A DNA stretch of 64,000 nt from positions 48,277,847 through 48,341,846 of the forward strand of contig CP154954.1 in NCBI GenBank assembly GCA_039621445.1, read 5' to 3'. Every line of letters starts with the position of its first letter. The stretch's first letter is position 1. The DNA is from Euglena gracilis (taxonomy: Eukaryota). Below are positions 3,614-64,000 of this stretch, piece after piece. The notes beneath the pieces are model-generated. The model had not been told where the DNA came from. It worked only from the letters and a program-made list of their open reading frames with translations, and did no database searches. The position numbers and the translations under genes are program-made.

Positions 3614-3889
3614 CAGGCTTCTTTTTAAGCCCCGAAGGGGGGGGGGAGGGGGGGGCCCCCCCCCCCACCCCCCCAGGGTGGCGGGACCCCCCCCCCGGGG
3701 GGGGGGACCCCCCCAAAATCGGGCCCGTTAAAGGCAATTTTCAAAAAATTTCGGCGCTTCGCGCCGAAAAGGTATACCCAGCGCCTCCGGCGCGGGACCC
3801 CCCCCCCCCGGGGGGGGCGCGGGCCCGCACCCCCCACCCCCCCCCCCCCCCCCCCGGGGGGGGGGTCAGGTGACTTAAAAAGAAGCCTG
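3614..3889. mobile_element. MITE family A (hAT-like)
   Basis: 16-bp TIR CAGGCTTCTTTTTAAG; perfect 8-bp TSD ATTGGCTG. Confidence 0.93.
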
Positions 3890-13300: not shown

Positions 13301-13921
13301 CTCCTGAACAGTGCTTTGGTCCGGTTGACTGATTTTTGGCCCAGCCCGAAGCACTGCACCACAGCACCAGGCAATTAGGTACTGGGTGTAAATATAAACA
13401 TGAACACATGCATGCATGCATGCATACATACATACATACACACACACATACATACATACATACATACATACAAACATATACATGCAACATACATACATAC
13501 ATACATACACACATACATACATACATACATACATACATGCATACATACATACATACATACATACATACATACATACATACATACATACATACATACATAC
13601 ATACATACATACATACATACATGCATACATACATACATACATACATACATACATACATACATACATACATACATAGATACATACATACATACATACATAC
13701 ATACATACATACATACATACATACATACATACATAGATACATACATACATACATACATACATACATACATACATACATACATACATACATACATACATAC
13801 ATACATACATACATACATACATACATACATACATACATACATACATACATACATACATACATACATACATACATACATACATACACAGAGAAATACACAC
13901 ACACACACACAAGACAGACAC

Positions 13922-13979
<58 letters not shown>

Positions 13980-22819: not shown

Positions 22820-31090
<8,271 letters not shown>

Positions 31091-36109: not shown

Positions 36110-39100
36110 CCACCCTGGCCAGCTGGTTGAAGAAGAACGCCGCCTGGTCGGACTCCCCGATCACAAACACCTCCGCCTTCACCTTGAACTGCTGGCCCGC
36201 AGGCCGCCGTCCGGCACGGCCGCCGACGCCCCGGGACACTCCCGGGGATTCCGGGCCGAGCCACACCACACAGCGCCGCGGGACGCCGGCCTGGCCCCAG
36301 CCATTCCTTCACGACACTCTCCTTGATCTGGCTCTGCAGCACCCGCTCCACCACGGCGCTGGTCCCGCCGGCAGGGCGGCCCCCGGCGACCCAGCCGAGC
36401 CCCGAGGACGCCAAATGAAAAAAAGAAGTGAATGAATTTATGTGTATGAATACGAATGATGAAAAATGAGCACAGGAGGGTTTTTTGGCCCTAAATAAAC
36501 ACTCTGCGGACTGGCCAAACCACAAGAAAATCGCCTTCTGACGGGGGGGGGGTAAAGAAAGGTGTGCCAAGCATTTTTTTGCAGAACCAAAAAGCTCAAT
36601 TGACACCTCGCCCAATACATCCCCCCCGAAAATTGCCAAACCCAGGTTGTGTTGGGTTTGAGCCTGATAAGGTGTCAGGATCCCCAGACTTTTTGAGCCT
36701 GTGGCCCTGGAAATTGTCGGCAGCCAACATTGGGAATCAGCCACAGGCAACCAGGAAGCACAACAAAGAAAAAAATATACTTTGATATAGGCGGTGGGTG
36801 GTGAAAAGGGTGGCCGGCAGGCAAAAAAAGGTCCGGCGACAGGGGTGGATCTCCCAGATTCACTTACTCTTGGTGAGCCCCCGGGGCTGGCACCTTTCCC
36901 CAGGTTTACCCGCCCATTTTGTTTGAGAACCCAGTCAAACACGAACCCCCTCCCCCGGGGGTCGACCAACACCAACACCAACCCATCAAAACCAACCCAA
37001 AATCAGCCCTGAATTTTCCCCTTGACTCACAGGTGGGGGGGGGGGTCCAGCGGCTGAACCTACCCACCAGTCTCAAAAATCACCGGGGGGGGGGGGGAGG
37101 GGTTGAACTGGTGTTAAACGGTTCGACCCCTCTGAGTTAAATGAATCTCTAATCGAGGACCCCGCAGCGTTGTGGCAGACAGTGAGGGGCATCGCCCTGG
37201 GCGCCGTTGTCACAGCCGTCGCAGCCGCACAGCCGGCCCGCCCGCGCCACGCAGTCCAGGCAGCCCGCCGCCGCGTACCCCCGGGCCTCGGCGTAGGCCG
37301 CCATCGCGTCCATGTCGACGCGGTCGATGATGGCCAGCATCGCCGCCCCAGCCCGGCCCAGGGCCCAACGCCAACGCCCCATCGGCGGTTGCTGTCCACC
37401 GGTGCGCCACCCGGCAGCTCAATGCGGTGGCAAAATGATTCGCCCGGCAGTGTACGCAGCAAGCAACCAAGGCTGCCATGACCAGGGAATTTCTTAAGGA
37501 CCCCCCGGGGGGGGGGGGTCCAGCCTCCGGCTGGCAAGAAGGCTGCTGGCTGGAAACGAGCTGCTGGCTGGACCTCCCCCCCCAGGGGATGGGGGGGGGG
37601 GGGAGGGTCCGGGGCTGGAGGGGGCTGGGCTGGACTGGGTCGATGAAAAACAAAATTTTCTAAAACATTTTTGCCTTCTCGACATTTTGATGGATGGAGA
37701 TAGATCAAGGCTGGGGGGCTGTGATGGAGGAAGCTATGATGAGAAAAAAAATGGAGGGACAGCTGGTGAGCTGGGCAGCCCAGTTGGCTGGCCAGCCTGC
37801 AGCCGGCTGGCCCGGCCTCTGGCCGGGCTGGACCCAACTTTATTTCACTCGATCCCCCCCGGGGGGGGGGGCTCTCAGCCCAGACTTGGGCTGCTGGCCG
37901 GATTTGAGCTGCTGGCTGGCTGGACGCCCCCCCCCGCCACGGGGGATAGGGTACCCTCCGGCTTAAGAAATACCCTGGCTATGACTGCTGCTGCACATAC
38001 AGCGCCAGGCTGCTGCGGCACACGAACAGCAACTCACTGCGGCGGTGTACAGAAGACTCTTTTCTGCGGCATCCTGACTGAAGTGTGCTACCAACTACCA
38101 ACTGGGAGGCGAGGAAGGCCAGATACTGGCACTAGGCCAGGCGGGGGGCACCAGCAGCCGGTCCATCTGGCAGCAGCACCATGGTCCCCTGGATTGACTT
38201 GTGGAGACACTCTGTTCCCGCAACCTCTTTACGTGTCTACTGCGTTCTAATCCCGGTTTTCAGAAACTTCAGTCAAAACCTCCATTGTCTGATGTGGAGT
38301 GCAGGCTACCTTTTGAGACCCCGGGTGCGGCCACCCACCCAGGGTGGTGTGGGACCCCGGGAGCACGATGCAGCACGGGATCAGCGGGGACAACGGCCAC
38401 CGACACCCGATCACCGCCCCCCCCTCCGAGTGGGAAAGCCCTGAGGGGTCCTGCCTTCCCACTGCTGCCAGCAGAAAAAGAAGCCTGATGGGGGACAGGA
38501 GGAGAAGGTGCCGGTTTCGATGCATGAGACATCCAGCCGCAGCGTATCTCACCTCGAAACCGGCACCTTCTCGGACCACTTGTAACCCTCGCTGCCTGAG
38601 AGGAGTCCCCCCTGCGACCTGGGGATGATGGGCGATGCGTCACCCATCATCGTATCAGTGTATCTCTTAATTCCCGCCTTCCCCACACGCAGGAACCAGT
38701 CAGCGGTCAACCATGCACCGGGGAAACCCGTGCAAGGCGATTCAAGAACCTTCGAATAAACTTCACCTATGTTGAACCCATGGATGCACCCATGATGCAC
38801 CTGTAGACGGCATGCACAACAACTCATTCCCACAATCAAATAAAAGAAGTTTTACAACAACGGAAAAGCCATCACAAGACAACGAAAAAAAATCACCCTG
38901 GGGGAGCCCCGGGGGGTGACCTGAGGGGGGTGGGTGAATGATCCGGGAGAGGGCCAGGGAGGCCATGGCCGGCGCACCAGCCGCAGCTGGATCCCGGCCT
39001 CCTTCGCCCGCAGGGGCACTGCCCGCTCCAGCGTCTTCAGCAGGTAGTCCGCCCCCAGGGAGCTGGGAGCCGGCCCCCTGGCAGAGGATCCCCATCGGAA

Positions 39101-40925: not shown

Positions 40926-42184
40926 TTCACGTCATGCAACCCCGCAGGCGGCCGGGGCGATGGCTGGGCAGGGGGGCAGGGGCAGGGTCTGCACAAGGAG
41001 GGTGTAGGCCGGGGGGGTGCCCCCCACCGCTTTTAATTCAGCGTGGCTATGACGCAGATGCCGAACATAACTACTTGAAACACATTTCGCGATGCAGTGA
41101 GAGAACGGCCCTTTGAGTGCCTTTCAGCGTGCCCTTCGACCGTGCCCTGTGTGTGAGACCTTTGAGCGTGCCCATTGTGAAGTTGCGCAAGTTTTACCGG
41201 GGAGGGGGGAGAAGTGGTTGACTGGTTACTTCTGAGTGACTGCCTGGTTTTAAGTCTGTTGCTGAGGCTGTACAGGAAGGCCTGGTGGGGGGTGGATTGA
41301 TCCCCCCACCCATCGCAGCATCGCGAGGAAAAAATCCTTCGGCACCGAAGGCACCAAAAGAAAAGTTCGACCTAAGAATCGGTGCCCTTTCCCAAACATG
41401 ACCTTTGGATTGGATAAAATCCTTCCCAAAAATGATCCTTACCCATCCCCTGGAGGTGATTGATTTCTCAAGTAAATGATATTAATTATGCTTTTAAACT
41501 CCAAAAAAGGCGCCAAATTTTCATGAAGGCTAAGCTTACGCATGTTATACTTGCAAATGGAATATCGGTGTGAAAAACAGCCAAGGAAACCCCAGCGGCC
41601 ACTGATTCAGTCAGATGGCAAAGAAACCCACCCAGTCAATGGTGTGAAAAAAAAAGGTCCAACAATGTTCACAGCAAATCCATTTTTGATCCGAACAAAA
41701 TGCATCACCCATCAGTGAGATATGTTTTGTTAAAAATAAAAACTGCTAAGACAAAGAAATGCACAAAACAACGACAGGATCATACAAAAAAGCCAAAGCT
41801 CTGGGAGGAACTATCTCTGGTCTATGTTACAAGGGTCAAAAGGGTCAAGACGGTTCGCTACGGTGAGTGAGTCATGGTTTGAAGCAGGCTCTTCTGTACG
41901 CATAGGTTCGGAAAATAACATGCCACTGAGTTTATTTCAAAGAACATGTTGCACCTCAAGGGTCGCTGCAAAGGCAACATGCCTCCCCCCTTGTCTAAGA
42001 ACTAAAAAAAGATGGGGAAGAACTGGGGTGGTGGTGCTGAATTTGTCAAAATAGGGGGTGCTGAGACAAACCGACAAGGGGGCCGTTGAAAAGGACAAAT
42101 TTCCCATTTGGGGGGGTCCACTGCTAAACTTACAGACATGTTGGCGCAAAAATCAACAAAATCTCACCAAATCAGGATTCAGAG

Positions 42185-42512
42185 ATACATACATACATAC
42201 AGACAGACAGACATACATACATACATACATACATACATACATACATACATACATACATACATACATACATACATACATACATACATACATGCATGCATGC
42301 ATACATACACACACATACATACATACATACATACATACATACATACATACATACATACATACATACATACATACATACATACATACATACATACATACAT
42401 ACATACATACATACATACATACATACATACATACATACATACATACATACATACATACATACATACATACATACATACATACATACATACATACATACAT
42501 ACACACACACAT

Positions 42513-42555
<43 letters not shown>

Positions 42556-42622
42556 TACATACATACATACATACATATGTATATAGGTGTATGTATGTAT
42601 GTATATATATATATATATATAT
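42185..42622. repeat. Compound (TACA)n/(GACA)n/(TA)n microsatellite
   Basis: Direct inspection. Confidence 0.98.
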
Positions 42623-44929
42623 TATAAACATAGAAATTTCCTGATATATTCCTTAAAAAAGACACAAAAAAAACCTTATAAAAGATGGGGCTCAACTGGG
42701 GGCTTAGATAAAGGTGGTGCTAGAAAAGAGGGGGCTTGCACGAACTCCGGGACCATTCTCCCAGTCATAACCATCCTCTAAACCCGCACCGCCCTTACCC
42801 AGGTTTGTGCTGTATGTGCTACAAAGTGCATTGATGACCTACACCAAATATACAAATGAACAAATCAGATTGAGTTCTGTAGAAACAATCTTTGATAGAT
42901 GGGATGTCCGAGTTTGGGTCAGAGTGCTTGTTGACAGAGTGCTTGTTGGTCTGCCCCTTTCAGAAAAGCCTTGGCTGGAGTTGGAGAAGGTTCACAGAGA
43001 TTGATGCATTTCGCAGTGGACATGGAATGGGGTGCAGAGTGAGTATCGCGTGCCATGCAAACAACACACCACATGTATGGAGGGCAGAGGGGGCCGGTGG
43101 GGAAAGACGCGGATGCATACCCAAGACGGCACTCAGAACCTCAAATCAACACTGGAGGGGGAGGGACACTCTCTGGAATTATCACACCAAGCATTGGGAA
43201 AATGCCAACAAAAAAAAACGTTCCCTAAACTGGGCTGGTTCGACACAAAGCCAGGGGGAGACGTCCCGACCCACCAACCGGGTCTCACAGTTGACGCCTC
43301 CGGCCAACATAAACGCCGGCGGGGCCAAGCAAAGGGAGCTTTGCTTTGTTTTTTCCCGCTGTGCATCGCCCAGGCGGAAATGGCCCTCCTGTCAAGGTGA
43401 CGTGGCGTGGCGGCGGAATGGTGGGGACCCCTCCAGGCCAAAGGTGAACTCACCCACCCCCAAACCCCAGGCCCTCAGGGGAAAAGGCCATTTCACTGAC
43501 TGCAACCCTGTTGTTTCTGGTTGGCGGAATTTGTCTTTTTGATGACATAACATTTTATGTTGCACCTGTTGTAGCACTTGTAAATCCGTCATACCCGAAT
43601 TCGACGACATGGATAGTTGGTTGAAGAAGAGCAACAATTAACACTTCTGTACGGCACCTGTTGTGATGGAAGATCATTGGTCCCATGCCAGTCCTTCCCC
43701 ATGCATCATCCAATTATGTGACAAGAAGCTGACCAGGTCACTTGGTAAGTAGAGGGAGTAGTGCAAAATAAGATAGGGCCAAAAAAAACCCGATGGAAAG
43801 GTTGAGCAGGTGCATAATGAGCTTCCTCCTCCCTGCGGAGCGGGAGATCCAGCATTGGTTGATCGGTCACGTCCACTGCCATTCAACAGGCGTCCAGGAA
43901 GGAAAGCCCCCCCAAAACAACAAACAAACAAAAACAACAAAACAATTTTTCCAGTTCACTTTTGGGGAATTTGAAGCAGAAGTTTCTCAGGGCTCCGGGG
44001 GAGGTATCCCGTACCTTCCTTGCTTACCCTCCTCCCCCCTCGGTCGAACGACAGGCAACATCTGTTCTGGACATAGGGTTGTGTTACCAAAAAAAAAGTC
44101 CTCTAGCCAGGGGGGGGGGGTGCATGCCGCCCCGGGAAACTGTCTCAAGCCAAGTTGGCTAATGCAGAGGTATTCAACAAGTTTCAATGAGGACAGGCCG
44201 CGAGTGCAGGACTAGAGGATATTCCCCACCAACTAAAAAAATCAGAAAATTTTGATTTATTTGCGTGTTTGTGGCTGGGGAAAAAAGCACCTTCAATTTT
44301 TTTTGACTTGGGAAAGAGGGTTTGGATTCCTTTCAATAAAATAATGCAGAAATTCTCAAAAAAAAGCCAGGAGACAGGGGAAGGAGACAGGTCCCCACGA
44401 GGACAGGATAGCTGGCACTGGCTGGAAAATTTGGGCTGGCTGGAAAAAGGCTGTTGGCTGACCCCCCCCCCCCCTGGAATGGAACTAGCCCGATTAATCA
44501 AAAGTCGACACTGCAAAAAACCCAAAACTGGTTATGGGGGGAAAACGTTTTACCTTTTTGACCAAAAATTTGTGCCCACAGCCAACCTTTGCACCCCTGC
44601 AAAAAGGCAGGATCCACTATCGACCAGCCGCCCTTCCAACGGCTGCAAAACTCGTCGATGGGAGAGGGGTCCGAAGCCGGAAAACGGCTGCTGGCTGGCG
44701 GGCTGACCGACGGATTTTTTTTTGGACTGACTGACTCGTTTTTTTTTGCTCCAGACCCCCCCCCCCGGTCGGCTAACAATGCCCAAAAGTGGCCACCTGG
44801 TGTCGAAGGAAGGCACCGGAAAGGAGGTGGGCTGCTCCCCAATTACGTTTGCCGGCCATCTGCCCAGTCTGCTCAACGGGAGGTGGACGGTCTCCCCACT
44901 GCTGCGGGTCAGCAGCAGAGCCGGCAGCC

Positions 44930-47900
44930 CTTGTGCTCGTGGACGACGGAGGCTGGCATGTGGCGCAGCACCGGCAGCATGATGCCCAGGCCGTGGAGGA
45001 ACAGCACCGCCGGGCCGGCGCGGCGCCTCCCGAACCATTGGTCCCCCCCCCCCGGCGGATGTGGGGTCCCGGAACCGGACCACCCTGGCGGCGAAACTGG
45101 GCACGGTGGCCGATGGCGTCCGTTTTGAGTTTCCAGAAACTTGCATTCGACATCAGAAGCTCAGGATCGAAAGGGCAGAAAAAATACAAAAACAATTGGC
45201 ATTGCAGAAAGAAATTACCTAAGTTGCCTTCGGCAGCCATTTCAACTCGCTTGGGGGTGGGGAAGAGGTATGGGGTTACAAAGACACCATGGAAGGAATT
45301 CGTGGATTTCTGGTGCTATTGGCGTAAACCAAATGGCCCCGGGCCAAAGCCCCTGGCTGGACGACAACCAAACCCACACATATACGTGTGTAGGTTTGCT
45401 CTCACTGAAATTGCACAACACAGCCTGAAGTGGGATGTGAGAGGCCGCTGGTGTCCCCTTTCCGGCTCCAGATGGAGCGGCCTCCCAAGGCAGAGGCGCT
45501 GCCCCGCGTAGCACCGCGACGAGGGTGGCCCAGGCGGAGGCCGTCACCCCCGGCAGCAGGAACGCCGTGATGACAAACGGTGGCCAAGGCCCTTGGTCCT
45601 CGGGTCCGTCGACCAAGTGGTGTGGCGTGCTGGTGCGGTGTTAGGGATGGGCTGCTGGAGGACCGGGTGGGTTGCTGGTGACTGGAACTGGACGCGGCCC
45701 AGATGCCCCCCCGGGGCGATTTTTAAACCCCCGGGGGGTCCATCTCAGTGGCTTGAAAATTTGGGCTGGCTGGAAAAAGGCTCCTGGCTGCCCCCCCCCC
45801 CCCCAGGGCCCAGGGGTCGATCTGGGTGCCGAAAAATCGAAAGCGCAAAAATGTCCAGAAAATTGCCCAAAGGGCGGGAGACGGGGGTCCGGGGCTGGGA
45901 AAAAAACTGCTGGTTGGCTGGACCCCCCGGCCCGGGGGGGGGGGGTCAAATTTTCTTCAGCTACGCTCTGCCATAGGTTGCTATCGGTTTTCCCACCTCT
46001 CAGAACCGGCGGACAGAAAGCGGCGCCAAACGCCTCAGAGCAGAAGGGTGGGCAGACACGAGTAGAACACGACGAAGTCCAGGATGAAGTGCAGCTTCCG
46101 CTTCGTCTCCCGCGAGGCGATGATGCCCAGCAGAAGCAGCAGCGACTGCAGGGGGCGCCACTCGGGTTGAGGGAAGGAGGGGAGGGGCGGGATGAGGTCG
46201 CTGCAGGCTGCACAGCTGCAGTTTTCAAAAATGCGCAAATCGGCGAAAAAAGCTTAAATGCTTAGGAATTGCTTAGATGCGCAGCCTAAATGGGATGGAG
46301 GTCGGTACAGGCTGCATGGCGCCTCCAGGAGAGTGCCTCCTCAGCCCTAACCACCCCTGAGGAGGGAGGGGTCACCAATAGCCCCACTCCGGGGTCCAAA
46401 CTTTGACGCGAGCTGTCGGAACAAAGATTGGGTGCATATCCATCCTGCGGCCCGGCCTGGCCATGCTGAGGGTCCACAACGTGATGAACAGCACGGACAG
46501 GAGGAGGGGGAAGAGCAGGACGAAGAGCGCGTACGCCAGCACGGTCAGCACCAGCACGCGGCGCATGCGGTTGGCGGGCACGAGGGCCGCCAGCCGGAGG
46601 TGGGCCTCCTGGGAGCGGAGGAAGTCTGGCGGCAGCCCTCGTCCTCTGCACCCCCGCCCCTCCGGTCTCCACGACAAATGCAAACCATATGGGGGGATTG
46701 TTGGGGTTCCTAAACTGTAAAAAAAACAACCTTCGGCGCTAAATATTTTGATCCAAAAACACAGCCAGGCTGCCCAACTTAACACCTGTTTCGGCCTGTT
46801 TTCAGCCATTTTTGCCTCATTCAAAACTGAAAAATCTGCTGCAAGAGAGGGCAGTTGGACAGAAATTAAAACTCCTTGATGAGGGGGGGGGGGTACAGGG
46901 CTGGAAAAATTCTTCTGGCTGGCTGGCAGGATTCCCCCGGGGTTCCTACCAGCTTCAGCCTTTTGAGAGGGAATCTTGGTGTACGAAAGAACCCCGCGCC
47001 AAGTTCATAAGGGTCTCAGGAATCCCCCCCAATCCGTGTGGCTGGACAAAGGGCTGGGCACCATGTACTCGTTGACCTCCTCCACAAACGTGACCACCAG
47101 GGCGTTGGAAATGGTGGACAGCGTGTCCGGGGACGACCCGATTAGCACATACGACAGCCAGAACACTCCCGGCCAGGGGGGCGGGGGCGTTGGCCACGGC
47201 GCCAAAGAAGGGTGGGGTCCCCTGCCGCATGGCCGGGCCAAGAGCTACCCCCCACGCGTTCGCCCCGCCCGCAAAGCGGCATTTTCCGGGAAGGTCGGAG
47301 ACTCCCCCCCCCCCTGGTCCTAGGCCCATGGCATACTGGAACGCGGCCAGGGACGTGGTGATGAGCAGGGGCGAGGCCGCGACGAACCGCGCCCGCCACC
47401 CCTTCTCCTCCGTCCGCCCCGGCGCCAGCCGAGGCCGCAGGTTGGGGGGGAGAGGGTTTGGCCCCAGCACACAGTCCGGCGCAATGCAGGGCCGGGGCTG
47501 CGCACACCGCAGGCCAGCAGGACGTCCACGACGCGGAACAGGATGGAGGCGTGGGCAATGTCCCCCGTGAGCAGCCGCAGGAACACCACGAGGAGCACCA
47601 CCACCCTCCGGCCGGGCAGGGCCAGGGGAGGGAGCCTGGTTGCTGGGGACGATGACGTCAGGAGTTCGAAAAGCGTCGGTGGCGACCAGGACCTTTTCAC
47701 ATCAAACAGATTTGCTTACAGGACCGACCTGCCTGGAATACAAGCAGAAAATGGACGGGGGAATCAGAGTTTTTTTGCTGGCTGAACCTGACCAACCCGG
47801 GGGGGGGGCTCGGAGTGCCCTGGAGTGCCTGGGCAGGCAGGCAGGCATAACCCCCCCCGGGGGGGGGGGGCCGGTGCCTGCCTGGTTGTGGGCCAAAACG

Positions 47901-50900
47901 TACCCAGAAATGGGCTTTTCTGGGCTTCTGGCGACTTCGGCGCCGGAAGTGCCTTGGCCGAGTGCCCAGGCACTTTTGGACATGTGCCCAACCCCGGGGG
48001 ATTGGATCTGGGTGTCTTGGAGTGCCTGCCCAGGCAGCCCCCCCCCCCCCAGGGTGGGGTCGGCACCGCCTTAAATTTCAGTCTGTTCCAGGGGGCTACA
48101 GGCTGTTGGAAAAAAAAGAACAAACAGGTGGTTGCGTTGGAAAATGACTATGGGAAGCCAGGGAGGTAGACAGTCCCGGCTCATGTGGACAGCGGAACGC
48201 CCGCCCGACCCACCCTTGGCAAGGGGACACGCCCGGGGCGGGTCACCACCACCACCTCGCCGGCGTTGTCCACCGCCGCGTCGCGCAGGGCGACGGAGAC
48301 GATGACGAGCAGGCCGAGCTGCATGCACATCGTCAGCGTGATGGCGAGGAAGTACAGCAGGAAGTACAGCGTGCTGGGGGACTCCCACCGGCTCTCTGCG
48401 GCAGGCTGGGGCACCCAACACTGGTCTGAGCAGGGGGGGGGGGGAGGGCTTAAAAAACCCCCCCACTCAGGTATGCCGAGGGACGTGTCCAAATCCTGGC
48501 CCAGGTCCAGCCGGATTTGGAGATTTGTGGTGTGACAGAAAAATGAAAAGTTGGGGGGGACCATAGACGGGACAGCCCGATGACTGGCCCTTCTCTGGCA
48601 TCATGAGGTACTCGATGTACTTCTTCAGGAACTGCCCGCAGGTGTCATGCGGCAAATGGTGGCATAGCTCGTCCGCGACGCAGGGGCTGGGCTCCGGAGT
48701 GTAACCACTGGTCCTAGCTTGTGTTGTTGATCTGTCAGTGGTAGGTACTGGCTGGTTCGCTCCTTCCAGCTGGACCCTGCGAGGGTGTGAAACCGCACTC
48801 AAAATGCACACAAATGTGCGTGGGGACGCAGGTGTGCATGCGTGCACGCCCGTGTGCACAGACACCCACCCGCACCCTCCAACGCGAACAGGGGAGTCCA
48901 GGGACCAGCCCGGCAGGCTTGCTCAGAGGCAAGGGTCGCTGCGGCTTCTTGATGGGGTTTGTCCCCGGGGCTGGAGGAGCAGCCGAAGGGGCCGAGGCAG
49001 CATTCATCCGGCGGAGCCCATCACAGTCTCCCTGGGGGAAACAGAGCGGCCTCTGTGCTGGCGTGGGGGCGCATCCCTCACACCCAACCTGTGTTGTTTG
49101 CGGTGTTGTTGTCGGGGTGGCCGACAATAATCCAGTAAAAAAAATCTGTGCCGAACTACGGGCGCCCGTTTTCCATGCACTTTTGTGTGGTGTGCCGCAT
49201 AAAATATTGATGCGCATCGCGGGGCTGATTGGATTCATCCCCCACAAGCCATCCCACCAAGGCCAAATGTTCAGCTTCGAGCCTGGCCGGCGCACTGATG
49301 CAGCAAATCCAGGGCATACATGCAGGTCACCGCAAGCTAACACGAGGACACGTCACCATTGATCGCACAACCAAAGCGGGAACTACCCAGCCCGCATACC
49401 AAAGCGGAGGAGGGAAGAAGGAAGAGGGAGGAAAGGAAGAGGTGACTGCGCAAGTTGGAGAGGGGACGGAGTGCGAGGTTGCAGGTGGAGGGACGAGCCC
49501 AGGGTGGCGAGGTTGAGGCCGCCGGGTAAAAGGGGGGGGGGAATTCCCAGAATTCTTGGACACAATGACAATCACATATCGCAATTTTGCACAATGGAAT
49601 GAAATTTTGCAAAAATGCTTGCACAGCAGAAAATGACCTCCTCATGAAAAGAATCAGGGAAGGGAAGGAAGGGAAAATATTGTCTCAGGTTGCCGTCCAC
49701 AACAGTGCTCATGTGCCAATGTCAATCTGAAATCTAGGCAGCCCAGACAGGGGACGTTCACTAAGCATTGGTATTGCTGTAAAAAAAAAAGTGACAAACA
49801 AGACAATCCAGACAACTCCTGTTCAGGGCAAGGGGGTTCACAAGATATGATGGGCGCACACATTGCTGTGTACCTCGCTGTTGGGCTGGGTTAGTGGAGA
49901 GGTGAATAGGGGCCAATGAGCCATAATTACACAGAGACAGGTGGTCAGGCAGCTGTAAGCATAGGGTGTGGGTGAGGTGTGGGTGGGTATGGGGCATGGG
50001 TGGGTTTGGGGGGGGGGGGGCTACCCTTCTGTGCAATTGTTGCCATTGTATGTGCAGACCAAATTCGACTAATGAGCGCCAGGTTTCAGCTTCAAAAAGA
50101 AGGGGGGAATATACATACAAAAAAATGAAATGAAAAAAGCACGCGATGCACACAAAACATATTTCCACCATTGCCAAAGCCAAGAAAGCCGACACAACGA
50201 AAAGAAAACGAAAACTGCTTCCAGCGGAAAGATGGCCACGCAAATCTGACCACACCCCAGCTGCCCTTCAGCAGTGGGATCCGCCAGGGGTGTTGGGTGA
50301 GGGGGTGGTGGGGGTGGGGGTAGGCAGATTCAACAAACACGTGCACTGGTCGCCCCTTGGTCGGGGGATGGGCCCCCCAAACAGGGGGGGGGGAGGGGGA
50401 GGGGGTGATCCCAGAGCCCCTCCGGAGAGGGGGGGGTAGGGGGTCGACCCACCCCAGGGAAAACTGTTGAGGGCTTTAAAAAGTGCGTTTTCGGGGGATT
50501 TTTTTCCCCATCAAATTAAGCTTTCCGGTGCAAAGCGCCGGGGAAGAAAATAGTTTTATTGATTCCAGGGGTCCCTGGACCCCCCTCGGCCTGGAGGGGG
50601 GGATGGTTGGTCCGGACCCCACATCCACTGTGGGAGGGGGGGTCAAACCCCCCTTCCCCATGTACAAAACCAATAATCGCTTGATACCCTGGCCCCATTG
50701 GCTGATTGATGTCAACTTGGATTGCATTGGCCCTGGGCCAAGAAGATGATTTTTGTTATGTGAAATAGTGTGGGGGGGACCCAGTCAGGCCCATACAAAG
50801 CACAACGCAATGGCAGCGATTTGTGGCGGAAAATCATCCAGGCAAAGAGAGGAAAAGTTTTTAAAAAAAAAACTTTCCGAAAAATTGAAAGGCAGGGCCT

Positions 50901-53900: not shown

Positions 53901-56900
53901 ATAACCAAAAAAAAAACCTCAAGAACCATGAAAATTTCAACCAACAAAATTTCGTGCCAAAGACTGGGACCAGCTTTGTTTGGGCAGGCCCAGCAGCCGA
54001 AACAATGGCTAAAAAAAATCTGGCAGGCAGGACACCTTCCCCAGAGGGTTCACCTCTGGCTTTCAAAAAAACCCTGAAAGCATGTAGTAGTGGTGGCGGT
54101 CGACCCGCCCTCCAGGTCTGGCGTCCCCCTCCCCCCTGTTAGCGTAAGGGGGAGGGGGGCTTCCCGGCAGGAGCAGGACGACGAGGGTGTAGTACATCAT
54201 GAGGAGGCGGGCGCGGCCCCACTCCCGGGCGATGGTGGGGTCCGCGATGCGCTCCAGCTGCCGGTGGATGTCCTGGCCGCAGGGCGTCGCCTCGGCAGCC
54301 TGCCCTCCGGCGGTACCAACATCCCCCCCCCCCGGCGCATTGGCCCCAACGGTCCGGTGGGGCCAACCTCGGGGACCACGTGGACTCCAACAGCCCGGGG
54401 GGGGGGGGGGGGCAGGGCGGGGCTGGACAGTTGGGCTGGCCGGCAGGACCAGCCCAGGAGTGGGGCCCCTTCGGGGGAGGCGGGGCCCTGCTCGGGCGTG
54501 GAGGAGCTGCCCCATGTAGTCGTCCACCTGCAGCACGAACGTGACGACCAACGCGTTGGAGATGGTTGGGGGCCAGGGCCCGCGGCCGCGTCCACTGGGG
54601 GGGGGGGGGGGGGAGGGACCGTTCGGACATCAATTGGAAAAGTGCTTACTGCTGCGCCAGTACGCTGGAAGTTGCCTTTTCCTGGCAACAGCGTGCTGGG
54701 CGGTTTGACCCCCACCATGCTTGTGCTTACCAACCGGGGGGGGGGGGGAGGGGGGGGGGTGCTATAGGGTGCCTGCCCCTAGCAGGCACACCCCCCCCGG
54801 GGGGGGGATAGGGGTCCGGGCCGGACCCAGAAAATTTTCATTGAAAATGGCCGTTTCCGGGCCCCCGGCGCCTTCGGCGCCGGGGTCGGAGGGGGGTGCC
54901 TGCTAGGGGCAGGCACCCCCCAAAACCCTACCCCCCCCCCCGGGGGGGTCAGATCGGGTGCTATGGGGTGCCTGCCCCTAGCACCCACCCCCTCCCCCGT
55001 GGGGTAGGCACCCGACTAAGCACAAGCCTGACCCCCACACTCACCACCGGTGGGCAGCGTCCACTTCCCACCACCCCCCATGGCACTGTCATCTTCAAGC
55101 ATGGTTTGCCATCCCACTCACGTATACCGTGTGTTCTGGTGGTGCCTCCTTGTCGTGGTTGCATCAATGTGTGTGCGTCTTGCGGGTATTTTTTTGGCGA
55201 GTTGCGGACTTTTTTGGCGTGTTTGTGTCATATGTGTTTGTTGTTGGTGCTTGAGCTTTTATATTCCCATTTCTGTTTATATTCTGCTCGTCATGTGGGT
55301 CTGTTCTGTCCCGAGGTTCTGTTCTGTCATGCTCTGGGGTGTTCTCTTTGGGTGCAAACCCACATGAAAAAAAATAGAGTTGGGATCCTGTGAGAGATGG
55401 TGTCGGTGGAGGCAGAGATGACGAGGAAAGAAAGCCACAGGACGCCGATGCCGGTGCCGTACTGGATCGTGGCTGAGGCAGGGCCCCCGCTGGCAGCCGT
55501 GGGGACGCACACCCCCCGCGCAAAGATGCAGACACACCAAGAGGGAATCCCCCAGGAGGAGAGGGGTAGCCAGAGGGGGCCACTTTTGGTTCAATTCTAG
55601 GGTCCAAAATTTCTATTTCTGTGTTTTATCCCATAAATAGATGAAACTCCCCTCAGCCCGATCCCACCCTTAAAGGGGAGGGGGAGTCCGTCAGACCCAT
55701 ATCCCCGTGGTCCAACCTTTAAAAATATACGTGAGCGGAAAATGTGTGCAGGAGATGTGGCTGCATTTACATCAAAACGTCAGAGTTCGCGCGGTATTAA
55801 CTTAAAACAACCCCTGTGTGATGTGTGGCGTATGGGCAGCACCCAATGAGGAGCAAGAGCAAGAGCAAGAGAGCCTGCAGCCAAGCGGGGCGAGCGGCTG
55901 GCCCGGGCAACGACGCGATCAGGAAGAGGCTCTTGCGGTCGGACTTGTCCTCCTCCGCGCTGATGACGTCCACGAGCCGGAACATCACAGTGGCGTTCTG
56001 GAGGTCCGTCGTGATGATGCAGAGGTACACCACCGCGAGGGCGATGGGCCGCAGGGCAGGGGCAGGGGGGGCCACATAGGTCGCAGGGGGGTGGGGGAGG
56101 TCAGGGAGTCCGGCGATGAGCGGCCCGAGTGGCTCCGCCGCAGCGTCCAGGTGCACTGCGACGTGTGTCGACGGTGTCCCGGTGGGGCAAGCTGGGCTGG
56201 CAAGTCATTGGGGCCCAACTCAGCCACGGCACTCGGCATCGCGGGGCCCCCCTTGGGCAACGACCAGGTCGTCGGTGTTGCTGTGGGTGTCGGAGATGCT
56301 GGCGGCGACCAGTCCCAAGAGCCCGATCTGGATGGAGACGGTGAGGGCGATGGCTGGGGGCCACGGACTGCCAAAAGGGGTGACTATGGTGCGGTGGTGC
56401 GTAGGGAGGGCATGGCTTTCGCAGATATGTTGGACGTGTTGTGTTGCGTTGTTGCTTTTGACATGTACAACAAACGGCATGCCCTGCAAGTCACCAAATT
56501 AGAAGCCCAGTGGGACTTCAACAAATCACTTGCAATGAAACGTAATGCAATGCAAATCAGCCACAGCTAGTGCGGTGTGCCATAATTATTGCAGCAGAAG
56601 TATATTTGCATTCAAATGCCTTTTATCTGGAGATTCATGGTTTCCTTACCTGTAACTCATGGAACCCCGAGAACATTGGACCCAAAATTCACATCACAAG
56701 CTTTTGCTCGACCTGCACTGAAGGCATCCTTCGAGTTTCACCTCTGCTTAATGGGAATGGGTTTCTTGCTCTTTGGTGAAAATCACTGGAAGAGGTCAAG
56801 GGATTTTATTTGGGGCGGGGCGAATGTGTTACAAAAGTTGTGCACGTCAACTGGAAGCACTTGTGTTGTACGGTTACCGAGTGGCAGCCCGTAGGGCAGG

Positions 56901-57100: not shown

Positions 57101-59413
57101 ATATACCTGTGGGAGTGATAGACTGGTCCCATTAAAATGCGCACTTAGCCACTGGGAGCAGCAATTGGCCGTAGATATCTTTTGGTGGAGGCGCCGTCCC
57201 AAAACCTGATGGTTTGCAAATTCCATTGCTTTCTCATGATTATTGAAAAAAAAATCATGCTCTGTTGTAAATTTCTGAAAATCTTCGTTGATTTTTTTTC
57301 GAATCAGGGATTCTCCAAATGAAATCACATCACACCAAAAGTTGGCCTGAAGAGACCAGAAACATCCAAAGAATGGATGGATCCCAACACCCACCACCCA
57401 CCAGCGAACAACCAACCCAACACCCAACACACACGTTTGGAAAGAGGCGGCATCCTGTCTGTGCACCAACCAAAAAAGAGCCCGTTAAAAAGCCATCAAA
57501 CCAGGGTGGTGAGTTTGGATGAATCCGAGGGGGTCTATGTGGGGGCGGCGGACAGGTGTACGATGGCCTTCTTGAGGGCCTTCGAGGTGGTGGGGAGCAA
57601 CTTCGCAGCCACTGTGGGGCTGGTGACGGTGTTGTCGTCATATGTCGCTGGCTGGGCGGTTGTTGGGGACTCCAAAATGTTCACCCACACACACAGACTC
57701 TTGCACCCACCTACCAGCACAGCAACGCACCCGCACCAGCAATCTCTGGAATGATAAATGACGTTGCGACGTGTCATTGCTCAACCAACCCCCTGAATCA
57801 CCCACTCACTCCAGACACACTCATGCGCACAAGCAAATGAACACACAGCACACAACACACGGACAAACGAACAAACACAACACAACACAACACAAATACA
57901 CACGCACACATGCGCATGCACTCACGCAATATATGTCAACTGTCAAATATACCCACAAGGAACATCTCATTATTTTGCAGGTATTTTGGTGCCAATCTGG
58001 GCTGCCCCCAATCGAAGCGGTATGTCCCATAGGCAAGCGTTTTGAATGTCAGAAAACGAGACCATTTACTGCCGCCCAGGGCTGGCTGGCCACGCGGTAC
58101 GGCTCTCCCCCTGGCTTGGCCAACATCGGATCATAAACGCTGCGGAGAAGAGCAGCAATGCAGAGCAGTAAAGAGGTCGATCATATCGGCGTGCTGAATC
58201 CCAGCGCTTGGCTTCACTTCCATGAAATTGATTGACATTTTCAAATCGGGAAGGCACTTTGCAAGGGAGACCTCGGTCTGTGTTTCAGAATGCGTCCGTA
58301 GTGACATCCGCAGCAGTGGATGATACAGCAACGAGCATGGGAAATATATGGCCGTGGTGGCATAATAAGATGTGCAGAAATGTAGGCAACCCTGTGGCAT
58401 GGGGGACTGTGATGGGGTCAAACTGTTAAAGGTCAGAGGGGTCATCCGCCGCACACAGCAGCTGTGATGCCTGCCTGCCAGAAAACCCCAGGCAAAGGTC
58501 AGGCCAAGGGAGGAGCGGTTTGCAGAAGGAGTAGCAGTGGCAGCTCCCAGCGGGCAGATGTCGTTGCAAACTACACACACAAAAGGCGTTAATGGTGGGT
58601 GTACCCCAGGCTGGTTCCACATGATGCAAGGGTCATTAAGGGCAGGTTGACTGAGCCGTTGGCAAGAAATGTCTCCGGATCCCAGAAGCATCCAGAATTC
58701 CCCTCACAGCATTTCTCAGGACTGCCCCCCCTGCACGTTTGCATGCTGGCTATTCTATCCATGCTCCATGTCTTACGGACGTGCCATCAATTTGGCTGTT
58801 TCCCCACGCAGAAGAACAGAAGCAGATGACGATGGTTATGGTTGTGCACCAAAAACTGACGATGCATTCCAATTAAAGAAAAAAATGCATTTTGAGGGAT
58901 AACGCATGCTGAATGCTGCCAAAAAAAAACGGATTGCAGGCTAATGGTCGATTAGATTAGAGGACCATCTTGTGCTACCACATCATCAGGTACATCGAGT
59001 TCTTAAATATTGTTCCAAGAAATTGTTCTTTGGGCAATGGCAGTCAGCTGCAGCTCGTTGGGGGGCACTGGATGCCATCAGGACAGGCCGGCCTCCATGA
59101 CAGCGAAAGGCCAGGCACAGGGTCCATTAAAGGGTGGTAAGGTTGTGGCGAACCCCGCCCCGACCCCCCCCCGTCAAAGTGGGGGTTAACCACCTGAAAG
59201 TGGGATGGCCAAAACGATCGTTTTCTGTTCGTTCAAGGTGGCTGGCTGAAAGATTCCCCCCCCCAATGCCAAAAACGCGATGGCAATTCTTGGAAAGACG
59301 TTCGTCTAAAAATGCTAAAAATTTTCGGTGCCAAGCGCCGGAAGGAAACGTTTGCGTTTTGAGGTTTGAGTGACTCCCAAAGCTGTGCCCCTTTGGACAC
59401 CTCCCACCTGAAC

Positions 59414-59923
<510 letters not shown>

Positions 59924-61964
59924 GTGTGTGGGTGCATGTGTGGGTGCGTGGGTGGGTGGGTGTGTGGGGGCAATTGTGGGTGTGTGGGTGTGGGTGGCGG
60001 ATGGGTGGGGGTGTGGGGAGGTGGAATGCGCTTACAGGCATACAGCATTGACCATCCCAGTCAACCTCAGTTGGACCACAGGAAAAACTCCAAAGAAAGC
60101 CACTGCTGGACACACCCACATGAGAGGGGATGAACACAGATGCTAAAGATTTTCATTCAAATTTTTGGAGTGTTCCTTCGCATTTAGTTCTAAGGAGACC
60201 CCTGAGGATCATTCCACAGGCTCTGCTAACCAGCATCGAATCGTTGGCGAACCACCAAAAGAGTGGCGGGATCACCCAAGCGCAATTGAGCAATGGCTGC
60301 CTCTCGATACAAAAGGCAGTGCGGCAGGTGAGAGTGTGAGAAGAGGGCGAGGCTGGATTAGGGACGGTGCATGTGTCGGAGGCGGTCATGTGTAGGAGAC
60401 GCATGGTCAGTGGGCCAGCGGCTGCCGCTCCTGCCCCCACGGCTGCGGCTCCACCTCGAGCTGAGGCAGAGAGGGGAGGGCGACGGTGGGAGCCAAGCAC
60501 CTATGGCCAGAATCCCAGATTCAGCCACGGCGAGACACACCCAGTCACGCCCAAACTACGCTCCGGGCCCGTCAAATCACCAAAGGAGGCTTACAAAACA
60601 AAATTTGTTTGGGTGCGTTTTTTATTCAAAATTTTTGACCTTGTTATGTTCTGAGGGTATGGTTTGGGAGTTGGTTGAGGGTGAAGATGCTGTGAAAAGT
60701 TGTCGAAACAATCCTCTGGTCCTGAATTTTTTGGACACAGTTCAAAACTGCAATTATGGCGTTTCAAAACTGTTATATTCTGCATTTTATCCACATTTGA
60801 AAGGTTCTCTCAGCCATCGTCAGTTTGAGGTTGAGGAGGGTTGGACCCCCCCCAGCTCCAATTATATCCCAGTGGCTTGATAGGGGGGTTACTGCAACAT
60901 CGTCGTCCTTGGGGAAGGAGGCTAGTTCGAGTTCCAAAAGCCCAGGAGAGTGACATACATCCCAGTCAAATGTCCATTTTTTTTATAATCCGGCACCCCC
61001 CTTCCCAGACCAAATAATTCCCCCCCAAATAAAACCCGACAAATGCAAAAATCCAAGAATCACTCGCCTCACCCCAAATTTGACCCCACGCAACCTGTAA
61101 AAACGACTGAAATCCAAAGATGAGACTGATACTTTAGCATTTTTGAGGCCCAGGAGTCATGTGAAATGTCTAGTTGGAGAGCAATCTCACAATTAATGAA
61201 GTATTGGGGAATTGGGCGTTTGGGAACCCTGAAAACTCTTGGGGTCAAAGGTCGGTCAAACAGACTCGAAAAATAGGATCGTCACAACAAATAAAATAGG
61301 ATCGTCACCCCCCCCTGGATTTTCCAATTTTTCATTTCATTTACACCCCGAATTTTTTTCGCATAATCCTGCATAATGACGTGCTTTTGGGTCAATTTTG
61401 ACCTTGAAAATTGTGCAGGATTATGCGGGATAATGCGGGCCAAAATATTCCTACCTGAATAATGCTCAATTATAAGTGTTATAAAACAATGGAAAATATG
61501 ATTCAAGAATGACAAAACCTATTTTCTGGAAAAAAACTGCTGCTTCTCAGGGCCTGTTCTTTTTGCATTCTCACAAAAAAAAGCAAATTATACGGGATTA
61601 TGCGAGATTATGCAGTCTGCAATTTTCCCCTCCCCTGCCAGTGTGTAAATGCAACTGGGGGAACCCGGTCACCATCTTCGCACGGTAAACCCAGCAAGGA
61701 CATGAAGCACACTGCAAAGCTGGCCGGCCACCGAACCTGTATGTTCGAACTTCATGTGTTCGACTTTCCATCTCCATCCATCTTTTTTGTGCACATGGGT
61801 GGGTCTGGGGGGACCTCAGCAAACCGATACCTTTGGGGCCTCGTTTACACCTCAGGGCCCAAGCAAAGCAGCAGCCATGACAAGGAGGAAAAGAACGCAG
61901 GTCAAGGAGGAGAGTGGCAGCGCGTGGTCCTTGGGCAACGGGGGCACACAAATTCATCTTTCAT

Positions 61965-63625
61965 TTCTGAGGCGTGCATTGGCGGACCTGCCGGCCACAC
62001 ACCTCGGGCTCCTGCTTCTCCAGGAGTCCCCACACGAACCGGAGGAGACTGATGGCCAGCTTGATGCCGCACATCACGAGGTCCAGCAGGAGCGTGAAGA
62101 GGATGAAGTAGGCCACCATCCGCCAGATGCCGTCTGTGCGAGGCGGAGAGAATAGTGCAGAGAATCTCACACACAGAGAAAATGGCATAGCAGAGGTGAT
62201 CGCATCCGTCCATCCGAAGAATGGACTGATGTCGAGAAAATTGGCTCTGTGCACAGATTGGAAAAATATATGCATTTTGCAAATATTTTAAACATATCTA
62301 AAACCATTGCATAAATATACAAAAACATATGCATATTATTTATCGTTGACCTTATTCAATTTATTGAATTTACTAACATTGCACATGTATTTATATTTTT
62401 ATAAATAGTTCAAAAATAAATGCCTGCAGGGACTGGCAAACTGATTTTATGGCCAATATCTTGAGTTTGACGCTGATAACCAAATAATGACTGCCCTCAA
62501 GCCATAAAATAAACCCTGAGTTCATCATTTATCATTTAATTGTTTATTCCACGTTGCTTTCAAAAACTTATACCCACCACTGCAACCACTGCAAAAGACC
62601 GCATTATTGGCACACATTATTGGCAAACAGGCTCCTTTGACCCCCGTTTGTCTGGCCTCAGAAGCATAACGTGGACAAGACCAAGCCCACACGAGGCGTC
62701 GCACGAAAGTGCAGGCAGGAGGGCGGCACACACTGGGGCTGCCCATGTCCACGTCTGGCAGCCACGCCGGCAGCCACGACGTCCCGTCCTTGATCTTGAC
62801 GCAGTAGTGGCTGTTCGCCGCGACACAGCACTCCCGCTGCTTCGGGTGGCACGTCCACGTGGCCTTGAAATCTGGAGGGGGGCAGCGCGACTGAGCGCCT
62901 TCCAGACGTTGCTGGCCGGGGAATCCACATATGGCAAGCAAAAAACGGTTTGAAAATGAGAGACGACACAAAGGTACCATCCAAGCATGAAATAGAAGAT
63001 GCACATACCCCACATCAGCAGAAGCTTTGAGGGGTCTGTTTGAGTTTTCGGTCCCATTGTATTAATGGGGAAGACATGAAGATGCACAAAAAAGCTATCG
63101 TTCGTCTCCCTCGTGCTGGACTTTTGAAACTTCAACGACATCGAGTGTTGTCCCCTCCCATCCGGGAAAAAACTGCACGTTCCAGTTTTCAAAACCCCCC
63201 AAAAGACCCTCCATCATTTTTTTCTGCCGGTGCAGGCAGGGGGGGGGGCGTGCGCCACACTTTCGTTGGCGTGGTCCGGGCACGTCAGCAGCTGCAGCCC
63301 GCCGCCCACCGGGCCCGGGGGGAGGCCGAGGCACTTCTGGAACAGCTTGAACCAGGCTGTTTTTTTACCAACCCCGGGGGGGGGGGGGCGGTTTCCGGAG
63401 TGCCTATGAGTGCCTGCCCAGACAGGCACCCCCCCCCCCCGGGGTGGGGTCGGCACCCGAGTAAAATACGGCCTGGCTTGAACGCGCCGAGGGTCGGAGA
63501 GTAATAGAACTGCTGGGCGGCGGTCTTGCTGCAGGACTTCGGGGCGACGTTGACGCGGTTCGGCAGGGCCTCCAGGCAGGCGGTGGAGGTGCCCTTCAGG
63601 TACTGCAGCAGGTACGGCCCTGGGT
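61965..63625 (-). CDS. Cys-rich extracellular domain followed by a TM helix; multi-exon, continues toward the window end
   Basis: PYLLQYLKGTSTACLEALPNRVNVAPKSCSKTAAQQFYYSPTLGAF|KLFQKCLGL...TCPDH; WTCHPKQRECCVAANSHYCVKIKDGTSWLPAWLPDVD|ITDGIWRMVAYFILFTLLLDLVMCGIKLAISLL. Confidence 0.7.
63353..63475. mobile_element. 123-bp MITE inserted in an exon (relatives at ~18352-18570 and ~47790-48070)
   Basis: TIR CAGGCTGTTTTTTAC / GTAAAATACGGCCTG; perfect TSD GCTTGAAC. Confidence 0.92.
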
Positions 63626-63909
63626 TTGGAGGGGGGGGGGGCGTGGGGCGGTGGGGCCGGATTGTGTGCAGGGCCCACGGCCATTGTCCATTACTGATGG
63701 TCGGTGTGAGCGAGAGGACACAATGCGAGGTGGGCGGGTGGGCGGGGCGAAGCCATAGCGGTTGCTGAGTCGGGGGCGGTGTTCACCTTTTGTCCAGGCT
63801 GCCGCTGTACCGTGCCGTGACCCCACGGCACCGTGGGGGGGGGGGCAGGCACACCCTGGTCGGAGCGCGGGGTGGGGCTCGGCTGCGCCGCTGCCAGATC
63901 ACACAGCAG

Positions 63910-64000
63910 CAGGGATGGATGGGAAGCCTTGAGGGGGGGGGGGGGGGCGGACCCCCCCCCTCCTACCTCGAAACTGAGGGGGGGGGGGCGAAAATTTTTC
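63910..64000. mobile_element. MITE copy (same family as 9145-10061), truncated by the window end
   Basis: CAGGGATGGATGGGAAGCCTTGAGGG...ACCTCGAAACT matches 9145-9262. Confidence 0.8.

Follow-up and report, generated by a model that had tools for sequence, protein, structure and literature searches.

Evidence that an inverted-repeat element in a coding exon of Euglena gracilis is removed as a nonconventional intron

Results

The element and its host gene

Near the right end of a 64,000-nucleotide stretch of Euglena gracilis DNA (contig CP154954.1, positions 48,277,847 to 48,341,846; this whole stretch is called the window), a coding exon of a minus-strand gene is interrupted by a MITE (a miniature transposable element with inverted repeats) of 123 bp that is flanked by two exact copies of an 8-bp target-site duplication (TSD). 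Transcripts of this gene lack 131 nucleotides, the length of the element plus one TSD copy, and we consider it very probable that the MITE is removed from the coding exon, together with one copy of the TSD, as a nonconventional intron of the type found in euglenids. All features are listed in Table 1.

On the plus strand the locus reads ...GAACA GCTTGAAC / CAGGCTGTTTTTTTACC...AAAATACGGCCTG / GCTTGAAC GCGCC..., and the tips of the terminal inverted repeats (TIRs) are CAGGCTG at the start and CGGCCTG at the end of the element. On neither side of the repeat do the outer and the inner base agree (A/G before, C/G after), and the repeat is therefore exactly 8 bp long; coordinates and non-extendable repeat thus confirm the initial annotation, which had described a 123-bp element with CAG...CTG ends and a perfect 8-bp TSD. 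The only two matches of GCTTGAAC in the window are the two TSD copies. However, at least two matches of such an 8-mer were obtained in 65 of 100 shuffles, which is not rare by chance: the significance of the pair lies in its placement and not in its count. In the entire window, five CAG...CTG segments of 30-3000 bp are flanked by an exact 8-bp repeat, and all five have at least eight complementary bases out of ten at positions 4-13 of the element; a control of 200 dinucleotide shuffles had no such segment with a TIR of at least 7/10 (mean 0, maximum 0). When all 64 terminal trinucleotide pairs were compared, CAG was the only one to yield more than one TIR-bearing segment.

The host gene is conserved. 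When the 131 nucleotides are taken out of the minus strand, the reading frame continues as ...QQFYYSPTLGAFK/LFQKCLGLPPG..., and the six exon pieces joined together give an open frame of 199 codons with a stop in the last exon; with the element retained, the frame shifts and reaches a stop near position 63285. The frame restoration that had been proposed from the sequence is thus borne out, and so is the exonic nature of both flanks. A homologue search with the 47 residues of the upstream exon returned two proteins (2 of 2 candidates): P0001 (211 amino acids) is identical to the spliced product at 163 of 200 positions (81.5%), from the signal-peptide region through the C-terminal PLAH, and P0002 (205 amino acids, JGI source) at 123 of 193 positions. 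Both are gapless across the splice junction (LGAFKLFQKCLG and LAAFKLGKKCLG). P0001 bears the accession GGOE01, which belongs to the Euglena longa transcriptome according to the available text of a preprint. The homology and the continuous junction together indicate that the gene is conserved, that the host is a euglenid close to E. longa and that the removal is exact to the base. The encoded protein is a conserved euglenid protein of about 211 amino acids; it has a region rich in Cys and, towards the C-terminus, a hydrophobic stretch, and P0001 has in addition an N-terminal hydrophobic leader. No precomputed Pfam domain was available for P0001 or P0002, the only two homologues found at that length range.

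The four other gaps of the gene read CT..AC on the plus strand, equivalent to GT..AG for a minus-strand gene. Inside the 1542-nt conventional intron, DNA word depth rises three- to fourfold at 61279-61671, which indicates another, moderately repeated sequence. At the 5' side of the gene, both the RNA reads and the contig of run X18 (see below) depart from the window after position 63909; there is therefore a further intron, or a first exon, beyond the end of the window.

Removal of 131 nucleotides from the transcript

Reads and contigs were placed on positions 60100-64000 of the window: raw reads of the RNA-seq runs X21 and X24, which come from different studies and were chosen by their species label, contigs of run X18, which is only guessed to be RNA, and DNA contigs of run X2. 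A joint from 63344 to 63476 omits 131 nucleotides with a positional ambiguity of 8 nucleotides, the very sliding that the TSD predicts. It is supported by six X21 reads with six starts, two X24 reads with two starts and one X18 contig (1135 nucleotides, depth 40.5), which has no differences from the window over the six exon pieces. X24 is strand-specific, and its exon reads all lie on one side, as a minus-strand gene predicts. Thus, the junction expected from the initial annotation, a loss of exactly 131 nucleotides, was found in X21, X24 and the X18 contig; it was found in none of the contigs of the DNA run X2. All five joints of the host gene are absent from the X2 contigs, and no intron-less retrocopy is therefore seen in this run.

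Every junction-spanning RNA record shows the 131-nt deletion. Position 63461 within the element distinguishes this locus from its relatives: the window has a G and 98% of the depth has a C, the sole listed difference from the majority of near-identical copies. All 24 RNA reads over this position (12 from X21, 12 from X24) carry the C of the family majority, and none can therefore be assigned to an unspliced transcript of the locus. Spliceosome-independent excision and release in circular form are among the traits of euglenid nonconventional introns. No back-joined (circular) RNA form is listed for the element, a region where reads from thousands of copies overlap.

Run X21 further shows alternative bases at exon positions 62090, 62756, 62819, 62858, 63491 and 63498, in about half to most of the reads, that are absent from X2 and X18; they point to a second allele, a paralogue or another strain.

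Table 1 Features of the host gene, the 131-nt intron and the inverted-repeat elements of the window
Feature	Position	Strand	Remarks
Host gene within window	60282..63909	-	six exons, four conventional GT-AG introns; 5' end beyond window
Exons of host gene	63909-63854, 63618-63476, 63344-63261, 62871-62734, 62133-62003, 60460-60282	-	from X18 contig and joints
Upstream exon	63476..63618	-	PYLLQYLKG...YYSPTLGAFK; last bases are TSD copy 2; 0 other letters in X18
Downstream exon	63261..63344	-	LFQKCLGLPPGPVGGGLQLLTCPDHANE; from X18 contig
Nonconventional intron, 131 nt	63348..63478	-	5'-AGC CAG ... CTG GTTCA-3'; next exon begins with A; single register fitting the published code
Target-site duplication copy 1	63345..63352	.	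GCTTGAAC on plus strand, GTTCAAGC in transcript sense; exact 8-bp repeat, non-extendable on both sides
123-bp MITE	63353..63475	.	imperfect TIRs CAGGCTGTTTTTTTAC / CAGGCCGTATTTTAC; internal G-run/C-run palindrome
Target-site duplication copy 2	63476..63483	.	second exact GCTTGAAC
Elements with perfect 8-bp TSD (nine, including the 123-bp MITE)	3614-3889, 10082-10440, 11548-11810, 14744-15022, 17716-18948, 20355-20634, 23926-24048, 54716-55030, 63353-63475		
TIR pairs with 7/8 flank match	21690-22393, 23041-23159, 37483-37977		

Agreement with the nonconventional splicing code

Nonconventional introns have been described with CAG at +4 to +6, CTG at -8 to -6 and TSD-like repeats at the intron borders (2024 review, PMC11282704). 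Nomura et al. 2025 have set the signature 5'-N3CDG-/-CH'GN5-6|R by knock-in mutagenesis in E. gracilis: the donor spacer is strictly 3 nucleotides, the acceptor spacer is 5 nucleotides with 6 tolerated, and genes of living E. gracilis regain their function when knock-in introns are built to N3CDG/CH'GN5-6|R (PMC12501133).

Nine registers are compatible with the 131-nt deletion (GT..TG, TT..GG, TC..GT, CA..TT, AA..TC, AG..CA, GC..AA, CC..AG, CA..GC) and none of the nine has GT-AG, GC-AG or AT-AC ends. In the register 63478 to 63348 the intron has the sequence AGC-CAG...CTG-GTTCA, with a 3-nt donor and a 5-nt acceptor spacer, and A, G and C are the first bases of the next exon. The split of the TSD into 3 and 5 nucleotides, with CAG at +4 to +6 and CTG at -8 to -6, had been proposed before any comparison with transcripts and agrees with the available text of both sources (PMC11282704, PMC12501133). 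The first base of the downstream exon is a purine and its third base is C, as listed among the features of nonconventional introns (PMC3935182, PMC12501133). As 3 + 5 = 8, the excised piece equals the element plus one TSD copy, whatever the sequence of the TSD.

RNA folding predicts one long hairpin for the intron with a minimum free energy of -87.3 kcal/mol (z -4.59; 1 of 200 shuffles was as stable). In the predicted fold, C+4 pairs with G-6, A+5 with U-7 and G+6 with C-8; positions +1 to +3 pair with -3 to -5, and -1 and -2 are free.

Direct repeats that flank a stable hairpin are the classic context for template switching, and the deletion could have been made by a reverse transcriptase that switched between the 8-nt repeats across the hairpin: a structure of -87 kcal/mol lies between the direct repeats and all evidence is cDNA-based. 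We regard this as extremely unlikely. All junction-spanning records have the deletion and 0 of 24 reads at 63461 show the version of the locus; moreover, the gene is conserved with only the deleted form in frame, and the knock-in introns that restore function in living cells are of the same design (PMC12501133).

Repetitiveness and relatives of the element

The element belongs to a highly repeated family. Summed DNA word depth is 118,051 and 794,921 in the two element bins and about 100-130 along the stretch; summed word depth is not copy number and is read here only as 'repeated thousands of times'. Nearly all of the 8788 placed X2 contigs lie on the element. DNA contigs part from the window just before 63350-63353, and RNA reads of other copies part just after 63475/63476 (six in X21, five in X24, one contig in X18); with divergence points at both tips, the repeat unit must end at the tips of the TIRs.

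Relatives within the window were found by similarity at 18352-18453 (81.9% over 105 nucleotides), 47791-47867 and 48012-48067, in agreement with the relatives that the initial annotation had placed at about 18352 and 47790, and in addition at 54727-54807 and 54968-55019. The left end at 18352 is identical to the tip of the 123-bp element at 22 of 23 positions; no right end of this relative (CTG, at most one TSD mismatch) was detected within about 3.6 kb. This closest relative of the left end (18352 to about 18560) is nested in a larger TSD-flanked element of 1233 bp (17716-18948). Two relatives are about 300 bp long (about 47778-48085, and 54716-55030), and the 123-bp copy resembles the two ends of such a relative joined together, as if derived from it by internal deletion.

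A relaxed scan for CA...TG tips with a TIR of at least 12/14 returned 140 pairs. The number of matches in their flanking repeats has one peak at 1-3 and a second at 8 (eight pairs). Altogether nine elements of the window, including the 123-bp copy, are flanked by a perfect 8-bp TSD; for four of them the repeat is readable at least one base longer. The eight further elements have CAG/CAA/CAT...CTG/ATG tips, are 123-1233 bp long and occur about once per 7 kb; most have G-run/C-run palindromes and a central ...TTCGGCGCC... core. The three TIR pairs with a 7/8 flank match probably stem from earlier insertions of this type. The element at 54716-55030, which has a CAT tip, fails the splicing code in both orientations. 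In-silico removal of the other TSD-flanked elements leaves several frames open around each; healing of a reading frame is therefore uninformative for these elements, as multiple frames are open in GC-rich DNA.

The TSDs of the nine elements are biased towards a palindromic GTnnnnAC: of 18 half-sites, 9 have T2/A7 (p about 0.0096) and 12 have G1/C8 (p about 0.0006), counted over nine sites only. This bears on a different origin of the 8-nt repeat, as the scar of a double-strand break repaired with captured filler, with no transposase involved. This explanation has been offered for a nonconventional intron that is strain-specific and has direct repeats of eight nucleotides (PMC4770533). For the present locus such an origin is scarcely probable: nine different TIR-bounded elements of the window have perfect 8-bp repeats, even if four of these are readable longer, the target preference is palindromic and the repeat unit stops sharply at the TIR tips. 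The 8-bp repeats, the target preference and the sharp tips together argue for a cut-and-paste transposase and not for repair filler. The mobility of the element, proposed from the positions of its relatives, is thus well supported by repeat depth, sharp repeat boundaries and eight further TSD-flanked relatives.

Rfam identified 0 families at gathering score over the whole window. Long microsatellites of (CA)n/(GT)n and related types are present at 59400-60050, about 1540-2230, 13380-14080 and 42100-42700, and spawn long spurious open reading frames.

Transposon superfamily

The hAT pattern combines short TIRs that have CAG at their termini with a TSD of 8 bp and a target similar to GTnnnnAC; the tips follow YARNG and the target consensus is nTnnnnAn. 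TSD length, CAG tips and a weak target bias suggest that the element may have hAT affinity. The element tips found in the window are CAGGC, CAGGG, CAGAC, CAAGC, CATAG and CATGC; relative to YARNG, positions 1-3 fit and the fifth position often does not. Membership in a superfamily that is not hAT but also has 8-bp TSDs (P, Merlin or one without a name) is a serious possibility, to which we would give somewhat less than even weight; it would affect the classification only and is compatible with the removal of the element as a nonconventional intron. It is favoured by the transposase search described below, and one relative (54716) begins with CATG, as P elements also do. In addition, E. gracilis has been reported to contain Merlin families whose TSDs are 8 bp long (PMC8101967). 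Against it stand the CAG tips, the short TIRs, the 8-bp TSD and the GTnnnnAC-like target, which together are the hAT pattern given above. Merlin itself was rejected: the 8-bp TSD alone would fit, but Merlin TIRs terminate in 5'-GG (PMC8101967) and the tips here are 5'-CA.

Discussion

Weight of the evidence

Several points weigh against an intron made from a transposon. Read support is thin, with eight raw reads and one contig, the latter from a run guessed to be RNA. The stretch covered by reads holds one of the nine perfect-TSD elements, and the other eight are all outside it. No transposase was found: Pfam returned 0 families for 10 of the 64 window open reading frames of at least 180 amino acids. 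A is the last base of the upstream exon and also of the intron; a pyrimidine at both positions is found in most of 74 nonconventional introns, as a frequent and non-obligatory feature (PMC3935182). No empty site was seen in the one DNA run X2, which may be the window's own source and whose contigs can lose rare variants. Near the junction, most X21 reads are variant, with G>T at 63491 in 7 of 8 and A>G at 63498 in 8 of 10; as neither variant is present in the window or in X2, X21 largely represents another allele or haplotype, or another strain. The window haplotype is carried near the junction by X24, where 0 of 3 reads are variant, by the contig of X18 and by one or two of the X21 reads.

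The X21 variants, which extend to 62756, 62819 and 62858, show that a second haplotype is expressed in at least one RNA data set, and this would fit a scenario in which the copy with the MITE is a null allele and the spliced reads derive from an empty-site allele, a paralogue or an insertion-free strain. We consider this very unlikely on four grounds: the X18 contig equals the window over six exon pieces and yet lacks the 131 nucleotides, X24 has two joint reads and no variant at 63491/63498, the sequence fits a functional splicing code exactly, and X2 has no contig of the joined form. The X2 contig across the junction (63446-63639) has a depth of 82.5, near and not half that of its single-copy neighbours, most of which have 89-128 and one of which (63654-63864) has 42; this argues against a hidden empty allele at equal dose, and a rare one would still be compatible with it.

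Removal of the MITE as a nonconventional intron therefore remains our preferred explanation. The initial annotation had gone further and read the locus as a recent birth of an intron from a hAT-like mobile element, an introner of the nonconventional splicing system. Exact splicing, register and mobility hold; recency, the hAT label and the role of an introner, which would require many copies of one family to serve as introns in different genes, are put forward with less firmness. The insertion may be recent, judging from the perfect TSD and the near-identity of the copy to the family majority.

A model for intron birth

A possible course of events is as follows. A transposase acting in trans would make an 8-bp staggered cut, as the TSDs suggest, and a non-autonomous MITE with short CAG...CTG TIRs would enter an exon that codes for part of a conserved Euglena membrane protein, duplicating 8 bp. 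In the pre-mRNA, the inverted ends would pair as a long hairpin that draws the junctions together, and the nonconventional machinery would cut, as if with a ruler, 3 nucleotides upstream of CAG and 5 nucleotides downstream of CTG; the rule comes from the in vivo work of others and its product is seen here. The mRNA would regain its pre-insertion codons, with a purine at position 6 of the TSD as the only extra need. A split of the TSD into 5 and 3 nucleotides would also explain the 'slidable' boundaries, the same base class at both junctions and the C at exon position +3, which would be position 8 of the GTnnnnAC-like target. By arithmetic, the 3/5 offset would leave the excised hairpin with a 2-nt 3' overhang, which, as pure speculation, could hint at the kind of nuclease.

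More tentatively, and with the odds slightly against it, the nonconventional splicing rule itself may imitate, at the level of RNA, the precise excision of a transposon, with a fit to the 8-bp TSD of a single superfamily with CA...TG ends. In that case most nonconventional introns would be fossil remains of this superfamily and their junction features would reflect its GTnnnnAC-like target preference twice. Nonconventional introns make up 71.8% of the introns of E. agilis (PMC12501133).

The hypothesis that nonconventional introns come from MITEs dates from 2014 (PMC3935182) and was restated in 2016, 2018, 2024 and 2025; transposon origin was posed as an open question in 2018 (PMC6221363) and the origin was still called unclear or merely plausible in 2025 (PMC12501133, PMC12621601). 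In the literature found, no defined repeated TIR/TSD family was tied to a nonconventional intron beyond hypothesis, a provisional statement as supplements and most subscription journals lay outside the search; neither hAT nor an 8-bp TSD is named in this context there, and neither term occurs in the available text of the 2024 review or the 2025 PNAS paper. The locus is thus a well-supported concrete instance, at one site, of a long-standing hypothesis and not a categorically new phenomenon. Its value is that all pieces are present at one locus: a repeated TIR element, an intact 8-bp TSD, a conserved exon, the exact removal of element plus TSD, and obedience to the code. It offers a simple reason for the spacers of the code (3 + 5 = 8, the length of the TSD) and for 'slidable' boundaries, and it turns the question of origin into a genome-wide count from assembly and RNA-seq. 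It also predicts that exon insertions with CAG/CTG tips are largely harmless, which would help to explain the very high intron load of Euglena.

Comparison with known systems

The intron shares with the euglenid nonconventional introns of Milanowski et al. 2014 and 2016 and Nomura et al. 2025 the absence of a GT-AG register, the CAG/CTG pairing, a stable stem that joins the ends, 'slidable' boundaries, a downstream exon with a purine first and C third, and the presence of conventional introns in the same gene. Unlike those, it is at the same time a highly repeated TIR element with defined bounds, which has a perfect 8-bp TSD and relatives at other sites, and A ends both the upstream exon and the intron where a pyrimidine is usual. 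Another comparable case is the strain-specific nonconventional intron 4 of E. agilis gapC, published in 2016 (PMC4770533), likewise a young intron with 8-nt direct repeats at its junctions. For gapC, break repair was invoked and the available text links no repeat family to the intron, whereas family, TIRs and TSD copies are visible here; conversely, presence/absence polymorphism was seen for gapC and not at the present locus.

Introners and MITE-derived spliceosomal introns of Micromonas, dinoflagellates and Fritillaria (PMC11282704) are also DNA transposons that inserted into exons and are removed, with the TSD helping to set the boundaries and the frame healed. They depend on the spliceosome and on splice sites from the element or the TSD, whereas the locus described here follows the euglenid CAG/CTG hairpin rule with its 3- and 5-nt spacers.

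With hAT MITEs the element has in common the 8-bp TSD, the short TIRs that start with CAG and the GTnnnnAC-like target; the G-run/C-run palindromic body is unusual, and no hAT transposase or dimerisation domain is linked to the present family. Giroux et al. are said to have described in 1994 how Ds insertions in maize are spliced from transcripts. In both cases an exon insertion of hAT type would act as a de novo intron; Ds is removed imprecisely, by way of cryptic spliceosomal sites, whereas the removal here is exact by the 3 + 5 rule.

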